From the IMG/VR virus record IMGVR_UViG_2671180444_000002: a stretch of 25,038 bases of DNA, one strand, 5' to 3'. The notes below the pieces were generated by a model. That model searched no databases, was not told the origin of the DNA, and saw nothing but the letters and a program-made list of their open reading frames with translations. Of this stretch, positions 1 to 8,376 are shown one piece after another (within the stretch, counting starts at the first letter, position 1; every line of letters begins with the position of its first letter). This DNA comes from a virus (taxonomy: Duplodnaviria > Heunggongvirae > Uroviricota > Caudoviricetes). Both the position numbers and the translations under genes were made by a program.

Positions 1-83
1 AGGGACAGCTGATAGAAACAGAAGCCACTGGAGCACCTCAAAAACACCATCATACACTAAATCAGTAAGTTGGCAGCATCACC
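1..83 (-). mobile_element. IS1 terminal end (inverted repeat plus adjacent sequence); the rest of the element lies left of the window
   Basis: Reverse complement of 1-83 reads GGTGATGCTGCCAACTTACTGATTTAGTGTATGATGGTGTTTTTGAGGTGCTCCAGTGGCTTCTGTTTCTATCAGCTGTCCCT, which I recognise as the IS1 end. Match stops at 83. Confidence 0.75.
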
Positions 84-465
84 AGCCTTCTTGAGGCTAC
101 CACCTGTTTTCAGGTGTCATTCAGACGTGATTTGCCCCAGATTGGGAAAGCACGCTTTTTTCTCAGCTATCGTCCTCTTATTTTGCCGTTACATTTCTTT
201 TTGCATTCTAATGATTAATTTACAATAATAATATCGGTAATTATTGAGTAATAATAAATTAATTATTGCAAATGTAATTTAATTCCATCTTCGCGTTATA
301 TTCCAATCTTTAATCTCCGCATGGAACAAGTTGCATGCGTGACTATATTAAGACGACTTATAACCACCAAAACATTTGCTTTGCAAGCAAAAACAGTGAC
401 CATTGACTCTAAGAAAATTCCGATCTATTGTTAGGGTCATCAAAGTTACTTAACAGTATTCCGAA

Positions 466-567
466 ATGAAAATACAAAGCAAGCTAATTGTCTTATTAAA
501 CATTATTATTGCATTTATATTATTTGAGCTTTTAGCTCAAAAATTTGGTTTGAGTACATTATTTTAA
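466..567 (+). CDS. Hypothetical 33-aa hydrophobic peptide (MKIQSKLIVLLNIIIAFILFELLAQKFGLSTLF)
   Basis: ATG-to-TAA ORF in the AT-rich island; lysines at the N-terminus followed by a single predicted transmembrane stretch. No clear Shine-Dalgarno. Below the 60-aa cutoff of the ORF track. Confidence 0.2.
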   Translation: MKIQSKLIVLLNIIIAFILFELLAQKFGLSTLF

Positions 568-715
568 AGCAAGATAAACAATATCGGGCACTCTAGTTTT
601 TATAATTAACAATTAAACGTCCATAAAATGTTATTTACTTTTCTTCGCTATTGTCATATCTTAATATAGTGGCTTACGCCACTCTACTTTCATCACATTT
701 TGTACGTTTATGTAC

Positions 716-746
716 TCGCCATGAAGCTCTTTCATGGCGATTTTTT
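716..746 (+). terminator. Rho-independent terminator (9-10 bp stem, 5-nt loop, T6 tail)
   Basis: TCGCCATGAA-GCTCT-TTCATGGCGA followed by TTTTTT on the plus strand. Confidence 0.5.
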
Positions 747-832
747 ATTCTTAATCCAAGAACATACTCCCTACCTATAGCAAAATCACTTTTTTAACAA
801 AAGAATAACGTATTTAGGTAATCATTACGAAT

Positions 833-1429
833 TTACCCTATAGGTGCTACTGGCCATTCAATATCCGGTGCAGTTGATGTATCAACACGGTTCAGCAACA
901 CCCGATACTTTTTCCAAGCTTCCAGCAACAAGGTTTCTTTCTCCGTTGCGATCTCCAGATCCACAGCATCCTGAAGCGGCGCTATATGCTCACTGGCTAC
1001 CTGCATCAGGCTGTTTTTTGTTTCTTCCGCCTCCCGGATCCGGAACAGTTTTTCTGCTTCCGTATCCTTCACCCAGGCTGTGCCGTTCCACTTCTGAAAC
1101 NNNNNNNNNNNNNNNNNNNNNNNNNNNNNNNNNNNNNNNNNNNNNNNNNNNNNNNNNNNNNNNNNNNNNNNNNNNNNNNNNNNNNNNNNNNNNNNNNNNN
1201 NNNNNNNNNNNNNNNNNNNNNNNNNNNNNNNNNNNNNNNNNNNNNNNNNNNNNNNNNNNNNNNNNNNNNNNNNNNNNNNNNNNNNNNNNNNNNNNNNNNN
1301 NNNNNNNNNNNNNNNNNNNNNNNNNNNNNNNNNNNNNNNNNNNNNNNNNNNNNNNNNNNNNNNNNNNNNNNNNNNNNNNNNNNNNNNNNNTTTTATGGTC
1401 CGTGCTTGTTCACTCATTCTGAATGCCAT
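833..1429 (-). CDS. tfa: Tail fibre assembly protein Tfa; interior hidden by N-run
   Basis: N-terminus [13 protein letters not shown] and C-terminal half ([25 protein letters not shown]...) match lambda Tfa. Start overlaps the stf stop by 1 nt (TAATG). Confidence 0.9.
1101..1390. other. N-run (unsequenced or masked), inside tfa
   Basis: 290 consecutive n. Confidence 1.
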
Positions 1430-4400
1430 TATGCGAGCCTCACAATATAGTTAAATGCGATGTTTTTGACGGTGTTTTCCGCGTTACCAGCAGCGTTAAC
1501 GGTGATGGTGTGTCCATGTGAACCAATCGCAACAGAGTGCGTATGAGCACCAATACCGACAGTATGCGCGTGTGCACCCGCAGATGCTGCTGTGCCGGAC
1601 AGTGAGTGTGTATGGTTTCCTTCTGAAGATGATTTACCTACCCATTGGGAGGTGCCACTGGTTAATGAGCCACTGATACCAACCTGATTAGTCCCGCTAA
1701 CTTGAGTACTCCCTGCCGGAAACATTCCAGTAGGTTGACTCCCGCTATTCGTTCTGGGCCCAGTCTGACTATGTTGGTGGGCCCCAGCTGAACTTGTAGA
1801 GCCGCTCAGACTGTGCGTATGCGCCCCGGTGTTATTCGTGGATTTAGTGCCGTAATCAAACGACGATGTGGTTTTCGTCCCCAAATCCGTACTGGATGCG
1901 CTGGCGCTGTGGGTGTGCGATTTAATGCCATCCTGTTCCTGAGACAATACGGCACGACCACTGGCGGGCTTGCCCTTAATCGTCCAGCCACGCATATCAG
2001 GGATCACGCCTGACGGATAAGCGGCTGCAAGTTTCGGGTAAGCAGATTTGTCAAAAGTCTGCCCCTGCATCAGGGCATAACCAGACGGAACGGTATCTGA
2101 TGGCCACGGGATTGGTGCACCGACTGGATAAAACTCTGCAGGAGGATGAGCCGAGGTGTAAAGCTGCGCCCACGGCGACCAGTTTGCGTCGGTCGTATCC
2201 CGTCGTGAACGAATAAATGCCGGAGCATGAGCACCGCTTGTACCACTCCAGCCGATGAGTAACTCACCTTCGCCAACGGCTGTCATCCCTTTCAGGTGAA
2301 TGATATTTCCATACGCTGTTGGATATCCGTTGTTATACACCTCGTATAACTCAAGACCTGCTGCCCCCTGCGTATTGTCTGTCAGCGCGGCTACCCGACC
2401 TTTTGAAGCCAGATTAACTGATGATACTGCTGTTCCACCTGACGGTAGCGCCCCGATCTCTGATGCCGTTGGCTTATTTCTGGAGTTATAGTCCCTTCGC
2501 CAGCCAGGTGAATAATCTGTTCCGTGATTAATATAGGTAAACTGGGCGTTGGTTGTTCCGCCACCGCTGGATGTGGTCGGAGTGGTAATGCGGATCGTCA
2601 TCGCTGACTTTATCCCCATTACTTCAATGACAGCTCCGGCGAGATGAATATTACCGCAGCCAGTATCAGTAATGATTTTATTATTGCCATAAGACCAGGA
2701 ACCCTTGCACATCCAGTATGGATGGTTAAATGCTCCCTGAGAATCCAGCCACTCGATAAACTGTGCAGTCGTCCAGTTTCCTGTTGTTGTGCTTACTGAC
2801 CCACCGAAGGCACGGCAGGCACCAATATTTTTCGTAAAGGTGTCTTTGCCAGGGATATCCGCACCGTTCTGATCTTTCTGCAGACGTTTCTCAGCATTGT
2901 CATTGGCTGCTTTTACTGCCTTTGGCGTTGCCGCCAGCGTTTCAGACGTGCTGTTGGTCGCGCTGCTTAGCTGGATTATCCCTTTCTGTGCTGTCGTTGC
3001 ATCCTGTGCGGTGTATTTCCCGTTAGCCAGGTCATACGCGGCCTTAACGGCTTTTGGTGTTGCCGCCAGTGACTCGGAAGTGCTGTTAGTCGCACTACTG
3101 AGCTGTACTATCCCCTTTTTCGTCGTGCTCGCATCCTCAAGCGCCACGGCGGATGCAATATCCTCTGCCCGTTTTGCCGCTGTCTCAGCGCGCGTTGCTG
3201 CAGATTCCGCCGTACTTTTGCTCTGAGCTGCTGCCGTCGCACTACCAGCAGCCTCTGTCGCCTTCGTGGATGCCGTCGTGGCGCTGCCCTTCGCTGCTGA
3301 CGCCTGTCTGGTCGCCTCATCTTTTGAAGCAGACGCCGATGATGCCGATGACGCCGCCGAACTGGCGGACGATGCGGCAGCCGTTTTTGAGGATTCTGCA
3401 CGGGTTTCCGACGCTTTCGCGTTCGTTTCGGATGTCTTCGCTGCGGAAGCTGACCTCGCTGCTGCCGTGGCCTGCTCAGTGGCTTCGCCAGCCTTCGTTG
3501 TGGCTGTTGAAGCGGATGATGCGGCGCTTTCTGCCGATTTTCCGGCGGCGGTGGCACTGGCTGAGGCCTGCCCGGCACTTGTTGACGCGGCGCTGGCAGA
3601 CGACGCAGCCGCTGTTTTTGAGCCTGCCGCAGCTGAGGCACTCTGTCCCGCTGCCGTTTCAGAAGACCTGGCGTTCGTCTCGGACGTTTTGGCCGCCTTC
3701 GCAGAATTTGCAGCCGCCGTCGCCGAGGAAGCTGCGCTACTGGCGCTTGATGATGCGTTCGTTTCTGATGATTTTGCCGCCTCTTTTGAAGCCGACGCAT
3801 CCCGGGCTGAGGTGGCAGCTTCTGACGCTTTCGTGGTCGCGGTGGATGCAGAAGTGGCTGCTGATTGTTGTGACGCTGCCGCATTCGTTTCTAACGTTTT
3901 CGCCGCACCGGCACTGGTAGCCGCCGCGCTTTTTGAGGACTCTGCAGCGGCAGCACTTTTTGAGGCTTCAGTGGCCTTTGTTGATGCCGTTCCTGCGCTG
4001 GAAGACGCTGACTGAGCCGACGAAGCGGCCTGTCCGGCTGACGTGCTGGCTGCACGTGCTGAATCTGCAGCATCAGTCGCATGGGTTGCCGCCTCACGGG
4101 CTGATGTGCTGGCATCGCTGGCTGATTTCTTCGCGGCTGCCGTGTTCTGTGCCACCGCGGACGCGTTACGCGCCACCTCTTCCACCATCAGCTCAAAACG
4201 GCGCAGTGCCTCCGGACGGGCATCATCCTCCGTCATGGCACCGAGAAAATCATTCAGCGTACCGGGTCGGGAATCTTCATACACGGTGATGGTCCCGGCA
4301 TGTGACGGCGGGAATCCTTCCACCAACAGAATAACGCTGTACTGACCGTACTCAACGTCCATGCTGTAACGCCCGGCTTCATCCGGATTTTCTGAGGCCA

Positions 4401-4512
4401 GCGTGTTCACCACCACCGTGGTGCTGTTACGTTTTGCTTTCAGCTGGATTGTGCAGTTCTGTACCGGTTTTCCTGTGCCGTCTTTCAGTACACCTGAAAT
4501 CTTTACTGCCAT
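1429..4512 (-). CDS. stf: Side tail fibre protein Stf, long mosaic form (about 1027 aa)
   Basis: N-terminus [31 protein letters not shown] and C-terminus ...[31 protein letters not shown] match lambda Stf. The ORF track begins 6 nt upstream at a GTG; ATG at 4510-4512 gives the lambda-like start. Confidence 0.9.
2900..3130 (-). repeat. Tandem nucleotide repeat inside stf encoding two copies of the phage tail-fibre repeat motif
   Basis: Two near-identical units of about 90 nt encode [29 protein letters not shown] and [29 protein letters not shown]. Coordinates approximate. Confidence 0.6.
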
Positions 4513-4523
4513 ATTCACCCCAC

Positions 4524-4671: not shown

Positions 4672-4884
4672 NNNNNNNNNNNNNNNNNNNNNNNNNNNNN
4701 NNNNNNNNNNNNNNNNNNNNNNNNNNNNNNNNNNNNNNNNNNNNNNNNNNNNNNNNNNNNNNNNNNNNNNNNNNNNNNNNNNNNNNNNNNNNNNNNNNNN
4801 NNNNNNNNNNNNNNNNNNNNNNNNNNNNNNNNNNNNNNNNNNNNNNNNNNNNNNNNNNNNNNNNNNNNNNNNNNNNNNNNNNNN
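4672..4884. other. N-run covering the J stop, the J-lom spacer and most of lom
   Basis: 213 consecutive n. Confidence 1.
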
Positions 4885-7800
4885 TACTGATGCCGGAAGC
4901 CGCTTTTTTGGTCACAATCACCGTACAGTCGGTGATATTGCCTGCCCCCTGATTGCCTTTCTGGAAAATCTTAAACTCCAGAGTGACGCTACCACCACCA
5001 CTAGGCATATCAATAACTGCACTGTAACTACCGGGAATGGCACCTTTAGTTTCTCTGGATGCGATTAATACGCCGTTTTTGCGAACTTCAAAACCATAAC
5101 CCGTGTATCGCGTGCCTCCTGGGTTATTTCCGCTCCCCGGATCGTCATACGCTATACCGTTAAAAATAATGGGCGGAATAATAATCTGGCGGTCAAAGTT
5201 ATGATCATCGCTTATGGTGACTGTAACCGTCCCGTTTGGTGTTTCCGTGTTACCCCACGTACCAGCCTGTTTCGGAAATGATTTGGATACAGCTTTAACG
5301 AAGTCACCTCTGACCTGAGTCGCCTCCAGCATGCCCTTAATCGTACAGTTTTCATTTACCGTGACATTGTTGAGCGTCCCGGCGTTCGCATTCACACTGC
5401 CACTGATATCCGCATTTTTAGCGGTCAGCTTTCCGTCCGGAGTCAGGGAAAATGCCGATGGATTTCCACCGCTGGTAATGGTGGGGGCCGTCAGGCGTTT
5501 CAGGAACACGTCGTTCATGAATATCTGATCGCCCTGACCAACAAACATCGGTTTTGTGTTGCCATTCGCAGGATTAACCATCGCAATCCTGTCCGCCGCC
5601 AGCAGCACCTGACTCTGCATGCCGTCAGGGGTGTTCTCAATACCGGCACCAATACCCGCGATATAAAGGCGTCCGTCCTGCATCTGCTGCAGCTTCACAG
5701 CCCACATGCTGTTCAGGTTATTATTTGTATCAACCTGAACCTTCTGTATCTGCTGAATTGCCGCACTCTGGTCTTCCAGTTTCTTATTGACGGTCTGCGT
5801 GATTTCATTGCTGACATCCGTAATGGACGTCCTGATTTCAGCCAGGTCAGGCGCAAGCTGACCGTTATCAATCTGCGTCCACAGCTCCTGAGCCAGATGG
5901 GTTTTCCCTATCTCGCCTTTGAAAAAATCCAGATAACCGGATGCATCATCACTCGGCTGACCAACAGCCTCCACGAATGCCGATTTGCCAACGGTGTTCA
6001 CACTGCGGATATAAAAGTAATAATCATGGCCCGGTTTGATATTGATACTGGCGGCTATCCAGTACAGCGCCGTGCCAAGATAGCGTGCTGTGGTTTCAAC
6101 CTGCCTGATATCCGCAATCCGCTTTTCCGAGAACCAGAACTCAAACTGTACCGTCGGATCATAAACCGCAAGATGCGGCGTGGCGGTTATCTGAAAATAG
6201 CCCGGCGTCAGCTCAATCCGCGACAGCGCTGCCGGTGCGGCAATCCGGAACGATACCGACGCCGGATCGCCCTGCTGCCCCCACGCATTTACTGCCCGGA
6301 CTGTCAGCCTGTAGTTCCCCAGCGCCAGTTGTGTGAAGCGGTAAGTGGTTTCCGTCGTCCGGGCCGTGCTGACCAGCCGCTCACTGCCGTCATCCGCTGT
6401 TACGGTCAGACGGAGCAGGAAGCTCACGCCCTTCACCACCTTCGGCGTGTCCCAGCGCGCCAGCACCTGATATTCCCCGCTGTCTGCGGTGACTTCGGCA
6501 GTCAGGTGCTGCACCGCTGGCGGCGTGACACCATTCACCGTGCCGCTCTGGTCGCCGTCAAAGTGCGCCCCGTTATCCACGATGGCTTCTTTTTCCGGCA
6601 CATGCTGCACGGCGGTGATGGCATACGTGCCGTCGTCGTTCTCACGGATACTCACGCAGCGGAACAATCGCTGGTGCAGCGTCGGCAGCTTCAGCCCCCA
6701 CACGCTGTATTCAGCAACACCGTCAGGAACACGGCTCACTTTTACCTTCACGCCGTCGGTGACGGACTGGACCTCCACGCTGACCGGATTCCCCTGCCCG
6801 TCAACCAGGCTTATCAGCGTGGTGCCGGAGGATGGCAGCGTGATTTCACGGTCGAGCGTCAGCGTCCGGGTCTGGCTGTTCACCGCCAGCACGCGCCCGC
6901 CGGTGCGGATACCGGCATAGTCATCATCGCAGATTTCAATGACATCGCCCGGTACATGACGAAGCCCTTCAGCACCCACGCTGAAATCCACGGTCTGCGT
7001 CTCCAGCAGTTCCGTTTTAATCAGCCACAGCCCGGCGCGGTGTGCCTGCCCCCGGCTGGTACAGCCAAAGGCATCCATCTTCGTGACGTTACGACCGTAA
7101 CGGACAATGGCCTGCGTATCCTCCACAAGCTCTGTCGCCGTCTCCCAGCCGTTATCCGGGTCAATCCAGTTCACCTCAACGGCATTATGGCGGTCTTTCA
7201 GGGCGCTGAAACTGTAGCGGAACGGCGCGCCATCATCCGGCATCACCACATTACTGCGGTTATAGGCCCACACCTTATCCGACTGTCGGTCCTGCACGAA
7301 CGTCAGCGTCTGCCCGTTCCATACCGGCATACAGCGCATCGCCGAGCAGAAATCACTGAGCACATCCCACGCCTTGCGCTGTGTGGTCAGCCAGGCATTA
7401 CAGGTGATGCGCGGCTCCGTGCTGCCAAAGCCGTCCGGCACCGACTGGTCACAGTACTGGCCGATGACATACAGCGCCCATTTATCCACATCTGCCGCAC
7501 CAAGACGTTTCCCCATGCCATAGCGCGGATGGGTCAGCATATCCCACAGACACCAGGCCATGTTGTTGCTGTATGCCGGTTTTAACGTTCCGTCCCAGAT
7601 ACCGCTGTATTGCCGCGTCTGCGGATTATAGTTCGACGGCACCTGCAGAATGCGCCCGCGAAGATGATAATTACGGCTCACCTGCTGGCTGCCGAACTGC
7701 TCCGAATCCACCTGTACGCCGACCAGTGCCGTGTTCGGGTAGCACTGTTTCACATCGATGATTTCGGTGTATGACGACCAGAGCGTTTTGTTCTGCAGCT

Positions 7801-8376
7801 GGTCTGTGGTGCTGTCCGGCGTCATTCTGCGCATCCGGATATTAAACGGGCGCGGCGGCAGGTTATCCACCACCACCGAGGCCAGATACTGCGAGGTGGT
7901 TTTGCCCTTAATGGTGATGTCTTTTTCCGTCACCCAGCCACCGTTACGCTGTATCTGAACCAGCAGGCGAACTTCAGACGGATTCCTGTCTCCCTTTGAG
8001 GTGGTTNNNNNNNNNNNNNNNNNNNNNNNNNNNNNNNNNNNNNNNNNNNNNNNNNNNNNNNNNNNNNNNNNNNNNNNNNNNNNNNNNNNNNNNNNNNNNN
8101 NNNNNNNNNNNNNNNNNNNNNNNNNNNNNNNNNNNNNNNNNNNNNNNNNNNNNNNNNNNNNNNNNNNNNNNNNNNNNNNNNNNNNNNNNNNNNNNNNNNN
8201 NNNNNNNNNNNNNNNNNNNNNNNNNNNNNNNNNNNNNNNNNNNNNNNNNNNNNNNNATCCACCGGACCTTCAACCGGCCCTTCGCTGATGGCATCGATCA
8301 CACTCAGCAGCTGCGTGGACTTCAGGTTGTCCTTCGCTTCGCGCGGGGTATGCCCCTTACTGCTGCCTTTACCCAT
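4885..8376 (-). CDS. J: Tail tip / host specificity protein J (central fibre); two N-runs interrupt it and the 3' end is inside the 4672-4884 gap
   Basis: N-terminus [34 protein letters not shown] at 8376; body ([20 protein letters not shown]... through ...[13 protein letters not shown]) matches lambda J. ORF-track entries 7930-8376 and 4658-7933 are the same gene split by a gap whose length is not a multiple of 3. Confidence 0.9.
8007..8256. other. N-run inside the J N-terminal region
   Basis: 250 consecutive n; reading frame before and after differs by one position. Confidence 1.

Follow-up and report, generated by a model that had tools for sequence, protein, structure and literature searches.

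A tfa-linked, AT-rich module of lambdoid prophages carries a putative gene for a YncL-related membrane peptide and a conserved structured RNA block

Morons and small RNAs of prophages are known kinds of genetic element, as are small membrane proteins. YncL of Escherichia coli K-12 is a 31-amino-acid membrane protein that is induced by heat shock and in minimal medium, and its production depolarises the membrane to a sublethal degree, condenses the nucleoid and sensitises cells to pore-forming peptides (PMC12542507). The protein is cleaved by RseP in vivo (PMC10470546). Prophage small RNAs that are 3'-derived and bound by Hfq likewise form an established class (PMC12711010). Here we describe a 749-bp stretch (positions 84-832) within a 25,038-nucleotide DNA of a virus of the Caudoviricetes (IMG/VR record IMGVR_UViG_2671180444_000002; the whole of this DNA is referred to as the window), where it lies between an IS1 element and tfa, a gene that relatives annotate as encoding a tail fibre assembly protein. 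We identified in this stretch a 33-codon open reading frame (ORF) whose predicted product resembles YncL, preceded by a promoter-like site and followed by a conserved structured block that ends in an intrinsic terminator. The explanation we favour, with moderate confidence, is that positions 401-750 constitute a small, moron-like accessory gene for a YncL-type membrane peptide, and that positions 84-254 are scrap.

The ORF belongs to a module (255-832) that is present in three sequence lineages: the main one, a lineage typified by L040 that is ~5% divergent, and a lineage comprising L006 and L032 that is ~25% divergent. Its predicted product in the main lineage is MKIQSKLIVLLNIIIAFILFELLAQKFGLSTLF. 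The L006 allele, MKIQSKLIILLNIIFALILFKLLAQKFGLYTLF, has the same length and the same stop, and is separated from the main allele by 18 nucleotide differences, 11 synonymous and 7 non-synonymous (pN/pS 0.158), which result in 5 amino-acid changes. When 18 substitutions were placed randomly, a stop-free frame with five or fewer amino-acid changes was obtained in 5e-5 of trials. The frame is intact in all 32 distinct copies examined, and polymorphisms within lineages are mostly synonymous. To judge from these alignments, the ORF is under purifying selection as a coding sequence. The peptide has one predicted transmembrane helix, with a hydrophobic core extending from L7 to L23 and K and Q residues on its flanks.

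The NCBIfam model for YncL (NF000537) matches the main allele over positions 1-28 of its 30 (E 1.3e-5, 25.0 bits) and, independently, the L006 allele (E 3.7e-5, 23.5 bits). BLASTP against K-12 YncL yields a gapless alignment in which 11 of 28 residues are identical (39%; E 2e-7). The alignment score of 60 compares with 20 +/- 4 for shuffled sequences and was reached by none of 20,000 shuffles; the match is therefore not a composition effect between two hydrophobic peptides. Residues invariant with respect to YncL are M1, S5, L10, N12, A16, L19, F20, L22, F27 and G28.

The exact peptide is represented in databases by only two unnamed metagenome predictions, and a phmmer search of 1.84 billion representative proteins recovered the peptide itself and one frameshifted variant of 43 amino acids only. 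This metagenome variant (P0018) has its conserved FG...F C-terminus replaced through a frameshift that follows residue 26; at least one natural copy is thereby disrupted. Searches of Pfam, PHROGs, PADLOC and PDB returned nothing useful for the peptide or for the other short ORFs, and a tblastn search of phages with the peptide was without a match, presumably owing to the shortness of the query. Four other short ORFs were rejected as coding: 321-434 (plus strand, 37 amino acids), which is annotated in phage PhiR70_1, loses its ATG in Qin-type copies; 296-403 (minus strand) is frameshifted in L006; 651-797 (plus strand, 48 amino acids) is frameshifted by T-tract length polymorphism; and 661-735 (minus strand) has exclusively non-synonymous changes. 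YnfT, a small protein encoded at the Qin end in K-12, is unrelated.

The pattern of divergence along the module is consistent with a compact transcription unit. Between L006 and the window, divergence is 47% over 365-402, 14% over 403-437, 25% over 438-465, 20% over 466-567, 35% over 568-665, 6% over 666-745 and 33% over 746-832. The three better-conserved segments coincide with the promoter-like site, the ORF and the structured terminator region, all on the plus strand. The promoter-like site, TTGACT-17-TATTGT, matches the consensus at 9 of 12 positions and is the only one on the plus strand near the ORF. Its homologue in the divergent copy, TTGACT-17-TATCGT, is the only promoter-like match over the whole of that copy, and conservation in the divergent lineage starts at about position 401, right at the -35 hexamer. 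The intrinsic terminator consists of an 11-bp stem followed by TTTTTT and is also present in L006. On the minus strand the stem carries no U-tract, and the terminator would therefore serve the small unit rather than the late operon.

The conserved block at the 3' end of this unit consists of a 6-bp hairpin (668-683), a single strand (684-701), a small hairpin (702-715), the terminator stem (716-740) and a T-tract (741-746). Its invariant single strand reads CUCUACUUUCAUCAYAUUUUGUAC. The predicted fold has a free energy of -27.1 kcal/mol (z = -6.1 relative to shuffles). L006 differs from the window at 5 of 80 positions in 666-745, compared with 65 of 190 in the noncoding flanks (34%; Fisher p = 3e-7), so that the block is more conserved even than the ORF. 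The changes observed within stems keep pairing: C673U and A681G each produce a U-G pair, and G726A converts G-U to A-U. None is a double compensatory change. This conservation fits a function at the RNA level, for example that of a stable 3'-derived Hfq-type small RNA, and we regard the block as the probable terminator of the ORF transcript and as a candidate 3'-derived small RNA. A long-range pairing between leader and 3' untranslated region (UTR) that appeared in the minimum-energy fold was rejected, as it is not conserved between lineages.

The first-pass annotation of the window, made from the sequence alone, described 84-832 as an AT-rich island between IS1 and tfa that lacks any ORF of 60 amino acids or more and does not resemble the lambda b region. 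All three observations are borne out. The GC content of 84-832 is 31.5%, against 50% in the readable part of tfa, 55% in the side tail fibre gene (stf) and 56% in the remaining window (about 55% elsewhere overall); since GC is 48% in 84-168, the AT-rich part truly starts at 169. No ORF of 60 or more amino acids overlaps the stretch, the longest having 52 (70-228, with its start inside IS1) and the second longest 48 (651-797). A sensitive blastn search of 50,697 phage records matched four records only (mEp332, PhiR70_1 and ev099 twice), none of them lambda.

The whole 749 bp are found end to end, at 98.5-99.6% identity, in 280 complete E. coli genomes, where the carriers are lambda-like prophages at the bio-ybhB (attLambda) site, and in the three phages just named. 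Genome annotations over the whole stretch are lacking, and the "hypothetical protein" calls that two phage records place there mutually disagree. An alignment of this kind with a known non-functional spacer, coupled with a lack of transcription, had been named in the first-pass annotation as what would speak against its suggestions. The alignment half of this holds, in that what aligns is indeed an unannotated spacer, but unannotated is not the same as non-functional in this case.

The stretch is a mosaic that splits into pieces of differing distribution. The module 255-832 is present in ~830 of 5426 complete E. coli genomes, or about 15% (828 of 5426 for 400-760). It is always chromosomal, always adjoins a tfa 3' end and is annotated in none of them. 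Its sites include Qin-type remnants near ydfJ and prophage remnants near the sit operon. It is missing from the K-12 prophages, and because their tfa genes match only to the stop codon, the module is, on this comparison, an add-on relative to related prophages. Its GC content is 29%, against 55%. L006 is Qin-like over 255-364 and divergent from 365 on. In the sit-linked prophage remnant of L006 the module is flanked on both sides by tfa 3'-end fragments in direct orientation (4892-4991 and 5596-5754 of that locus). These flanks hint that the module moves between prophages via recombination within tfa. Natural recombination is seen in strain A20 (L060), where an L040-type left part is joined to an L006-type right part at a crossover within the conserved block.

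Taken by itself, the segment 84-168, which forms the right-hand end of a 215-bp module from a prophage end and holds two short hairpins, AGCCTtcttGAGGCT and CACCTGttttCAGGTG, has matches in many additional genomes. A copy of the 215-bp module that is 97% identical marks the end of an O26 prophage, next to genes of the NleG type (DUF1076). In E. coli O26 RM8426 (L007, 4001-4253) three such effector genes adjoin it, and a 55-amino-acid ORF annotated as 'capsid protein', which looks mis-annotated, overlaps its edge. In intact attLambda prophages the module borders immediately on a 340-bp piece that shares 97% identity with the yodB-serU region of K-12 and includes the 3' 62 nucleotides of serU, which encodes tRNA-Ser(CGA). 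This 340-bp piece is also present in the free phage genomes mEp332 (L001, ~2050-2395) and ev099; in locus L004 it occupies 5551-5890. Judged from these alignments, the module and the serU piece together are the signature of a prophage end (att arm, tRNA core and host flank) from a serU-integrated ancestor, in which the 215-bp module is the putative att arm and the 340-bp piece a fossil att junction showing captured host DNA.

Beyond the serU piece, intact relatives carry an AraC-family regulator that is 28% identical to AppY and has YdeO as its best model match, then IS fragments, and int/xis or host DNA. In the window and in 79 complete genomes IS1 is located exactly at 83/84. Comparison with one intact relative indicates that IS1 replaced 550 bp, the serU fragment included, and the junction shows no target-site duplication. 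The regulator gene starts 206 bp past the other end of IS1 (L059, 6316-7083), and the position of this IS1 end upstream of the AraC/YdeO/AppY-like gene may alter the expression of that gene. A recombination scar had been among the options named in the first-pass annotation, and for this part of the stretch the suggestion gains support from the att-arm remnant and the IS1-associated deletion. Positions 84-254 would thus be an att-arm remnant truncated by the IS1 insertion, plus an AT-rich linker. Coordinates of all features are collected in Table 1.

Table 1. Features of the stretch between IS1 and tfa and of its borders, with the evidence for each
Feature	Positions	Strand	Evidence and remarks
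IS1 end	1-83	-	Borders the AT-rich stretch on the left, its terminal inverted repeat spanning 61-83; RefSeq annotates IS1A transposase under the identical junction in 79 genomes
Remnant of prophage-end module (last 85 of 215 bp), putative att arm	84-168		48% GC; module matches elsewhere
AT-rich linker, 24% GC	169-254		Only in attLambda-type prophages; no feature detected
Left part of tfa-linked module	255-400		Without conserved ORF or structure
Sigma-70-like promoter TTGACT-17-TATTGT, predicted	403-431	+	Consensus match only; predicted start near 438-440
33-codon ORF plus stop, YncL-related	466-567	+	Substitution pattern, YncL model, BLASTP
Variable spacer, presumed 3' UTR	568-665	+	35% divergent in L006 lineage; partly deleted in NCTC9064
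Conserved structured block	666-750	+	Terminator scan, fold, low divergence
Spacer between terminator and tfa stop codon, unconserved	751-832		33% divergent in L006
tfa, convergent with the small ORF	833-1429	-	Annotated in relatives; N-masked at 1101-1390

Beyond tfa lie the side tail fibre gene and then a lambda-like morphogenesis cluster. The side tail fibre protein (1029 amino acids; 1429-4518, minus strand) has a very long low-complexity centre with Ala/Ser/Thr-rich repeated motifs, and the length of its coding sequence varies in relatives, where it is annotated at ~2.0 to 3.4 kb. Runs of N at 1101-1390, 4672-4884 and 8007-8256 (290, 213 and 250 bases) hide parts of tfa, the region around the start of a J-like gene, and a tail gene. 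An Rfam search at a permissive E-value gave no match in 84-832, the conserved block included; the only hit was IS009 (RF02111), matched at full length inside tfa (873-1071, minus strand; 218 bits, E 6e-55). IS009 is a 'small RNA candidate' family that here lies wholly within the tfa coding sequence, and it probably just models conserved tfa coding DNA.

Taken together, we propose that the island is a short 'b-region equivalent' of a lambdoid prophage in two parts, the scrap described above and a compact, autonomously transcribed accessory unit on the plus strand, convergent with the late operon. This unit would open with a sigma-70-like promoter and a short leader that lacks a Shine-Dalgarno sequence, continue with the 33-codon gene and a variable spacer, and close with the 80-nucleotide conserved block; transcription is predicted to end at the Rho-independent terminator, ~85 nucleotides short of tfa. 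If it acts as YncL does, the peptide would enter the inner membrane and lower the membrane potential in part. Such partial depolarisation may shift the lysogen to a slowed, stress-type state, with conversion, exclusion or persistence as conceivable consequences for the phage. A further role of the conserved 3' tail may be that of a stable 3'-derived small RNA. Mini-proteins were one of the possible contents named in the first-pass annotation, and it is this suggestion that the substitution pattern and the homology of the YncL-like ORF strengthen.

Several observations weigh against this proposal. No Shine-Dalgarno sequence is present upstream of the ATG (UUCCGAAAUG). Both alleles score under the curated 35-bit cut-off for YncL, for which K-12 YncL itself obtains 68.6 bits; because their 25.0 and 23.5 bits fall below this equivalog threshold, the peptide is best classed, by its sequence, as a homologue or paralogue of YncL and not as an equivalog. 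The tests of constraint depend essentially on one divergent lineage (L006/L032) together with the 5%-divergent one. Contig scans with DNA 23-mer and peptide patterns found no relatives outside E. coli, a search limited by the length of 33 amino acids, and the literature searched yielded no relevant mention of either the peptide or the block sequence. Strain NCTC9064 (L062) has a natural deletion of 97 nucleotides (equivalent to 587-680 of the window) that removes hairpin 1 of the block and keeps the ORF and the terminator. Finally, mosaic recombination could have produced the conserved patch, because the A20 crossover lies within the block. However, the L006 block carries private substitutions at 677 and 740 and is therefore not a recent transfer, and the conserved patch ends sharply, between flanks that are too divergent to support crossovers.

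Alternative explanations differ mainly in what they take the conserved segments to be. It is possible, though clearly less probable than the peptide gene, that the main product is a trans-acting small RNA of ~80 nucleotides (666-746), bound by Hfq via the terminator and U-tail and regulating host mRNAs via the invariant strand. Its 5' end would arise by processing of the ORF transcript or from a weak promoter of its own, and as it is compatible with the peptide the transcript could be dual-function. The greater conservation of the block relative to the ORF, its succession of hairpin, AU-rich single strand and 11-bp terminator with six U (thus both a U-tail and a conserved single-stranded seed), the preservation of pairing by the changes at 673, 681 and 726, and the absence of any coding signature in the ORFs that overlap it all speak for such an RNA. 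On the other side stand the lack of an Rfam match and of double compensatory changes, the absence of a promoter-like site directly upstream at the scan threshold, the loss of hairpin 1 in NCTC9064 and the recombination that could explain the patch. Moreover, complementarity of the block to the ORF mRNA is not above that of shuffles (728 of 1000 do as well), and its pairing with the leader of the AraC-like gene is not better than in shuffled controls. A small RNA had also been suggested in the first-pass annotation, and the structured block sustains this as a possibility without demonstrating it. The same lack of complementarity to the ORF mRNA counts against a type I toxin-antitoxin system, in which the hydrophobic peptide would be a toxin checked by an antisense or nearby small RNA, such as a minus-strand transcript from 657-628. 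We give this reading little credence. A small hydrophobic prophage peptide would suit it, a member of the family depolarises the membrane and lowers viability when produced (PMC12542507), a promoter-like site on the minus strand (ATGACA-18-TAACAT) is directed into the ORF, and toxins under tight repression typically have a poor ribosome-binding site. But the peptide has no similarity to known type I toxins in Pfam, PHROGs or PADLOC, the minus-strand site was not reported in the divergent copy, no minus-strand terminator is conserved (a hairpin at 374-390 is lost in L006), and the pairing between leader and 3' UTR is likewise not conserved.

It is also unlikely that the stretch is a non-functional spacer, that is, decaying DNA of a prophage end with a chance ORF, a block that is merely a terminator, and patches of identity produced by lambdoid recombination. 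Such a spacer would accord with the lack of any annotation in 828 RefSeq genomes, the missing Shine-Dalgarno sequence, the existence of three sequence lineages only, the demonstrated mosaicism and recombinants (the L006 switch at 365 and the A20 crossover) and the tolerance of IS1 and deletions nearby. It does not account for the synonymous-biased pattern of substitution (p = 5e-5) or for the independent match of both alleles to the YncL model, nor for conservation that follows promoter, ORF and terminator while the DNA between and around these elements diverges by 35-47%. A recombination patch, furthermore, would need to end exactly at structural boundaries in those divergent flanks, and the private substitutions of the L006 block speak against it. 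A role at the DNA level, as an H-NS-bound silencing region or as an upstream regulatory region for the AraC/YdeO/AppY-like gene in the manner of tfaX-appY of DLP12, seems to us more doubtful still. A GC content of 24-33% is typical of H-NS targets. In intact relatives tfa, 1.5 kb of AT-rich DNA and the AraC-family gene follow one another on one strand, and the resemblance of the regulator to AppY and YdeO recalls DLP12, where tfaX is followed by appY. Yet the regulator is missing from the Qin-type and sit-linked prophage remnants that carry the module, the captured serU piece separates the two in intact relatives, and in the window IS1 and the 550-bp deletion come between them. Regulation of this kind also leaves the codon-level constraint unexplained.

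If the gene for a YncL-type peptide is real, annotation pipelines overlook a small-protein gene in ~800 complete E. coli genomes, and YncL would have its first relative on a prophage, which would connect stress mini-proteins of the core genome with phage accessory cargo. Phage mEp332 (PV340541), which carries the unit and grows on K-12, offers a simple test system. The conserved 3' block lends itself as a candidate for a new small RNA of prophages, and 'empty' AT-rich spacers at tfa-distal junctions merit screening for ORFs of fewer than 50 codons. More speculatively, and with only a slim chance in our estimation, the transcript is dual-function, combining a YncL-type depolarising peptide with a 3' Hfq-type small RNA, and serves to reprogram the lysogen or to block superinfecting phages that depend on the membrane potential. 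If this were true, the unit would be an element for conversion or defence that is widespread (~15% of E. coli) and entirely without annotation.

The unit can be compared with several described systems. The lambdoid morons (bor and lom of lambda, cor of phi80 and HK022) are extra units in or near the late region with a promoter and terminator of their own, as is predicted for the present unit from its promoter-like site and terminator, and they too have a lower GC content than their neighbours and are present or absent among related prophages; lambda and the K-12 prophages lack the unit described here, which also has a deviant composition. In contrast to these morons, it is much smaller (~350 bp with a 33-amino-acid product), is convergent with the late operon and has a promoter that is predicted. 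The type I toxins Hok, Ldr, TisB, ZorO, Ibs and ShoB are also small hydrophobic membrane peptides encoded on horizontally acquired DNA, but the peptide shares no sequence similarity with them and no antitoxin RNA was found. Small RNAs of prophages and 3' UTRs that bind Hfq (DicF, IpeX, StxS and the EcOnc series) resemble the block in that a 5' hairpin precedes a conserved single strand and a Rho-independent terminator closes the RNA with a U-tail, whereas the block, a candidate small RNA, is absent from Rfam.

The map position, from tfa to the prophage end, is that of the lambda b region and of the tfaX-appY end of DLP12, and intact relatives carry the AppY/YdeO-like regulator beyond it; lambda and the K-12 prophages have no sequence similarity to the stretch beyond tfa. 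YncL of K-12 (b4598, 'stress response membrane protein') is the closest counterpart of the peptide, similar in length (31 compared with 33 amino acids) and in its single hydrophobic helix. The yncL gene, however, has a chromosomal locus, patD-yncL-ortT, and a strong Shine-Dalgarno sequence (AAGGUGG), whereas the ORF described here is prophage-borne beside tfa and lacks one; the C-terminus of the peptide differs from that of YncL, and the 3' regions are unrelated. While its components are thus of known kinds, what is new, as far as these comparisons indicate, is an unannotated, tfa-linked YncL paralogue with a conserved RNA tail in ~15% of complete E. coli genomes.

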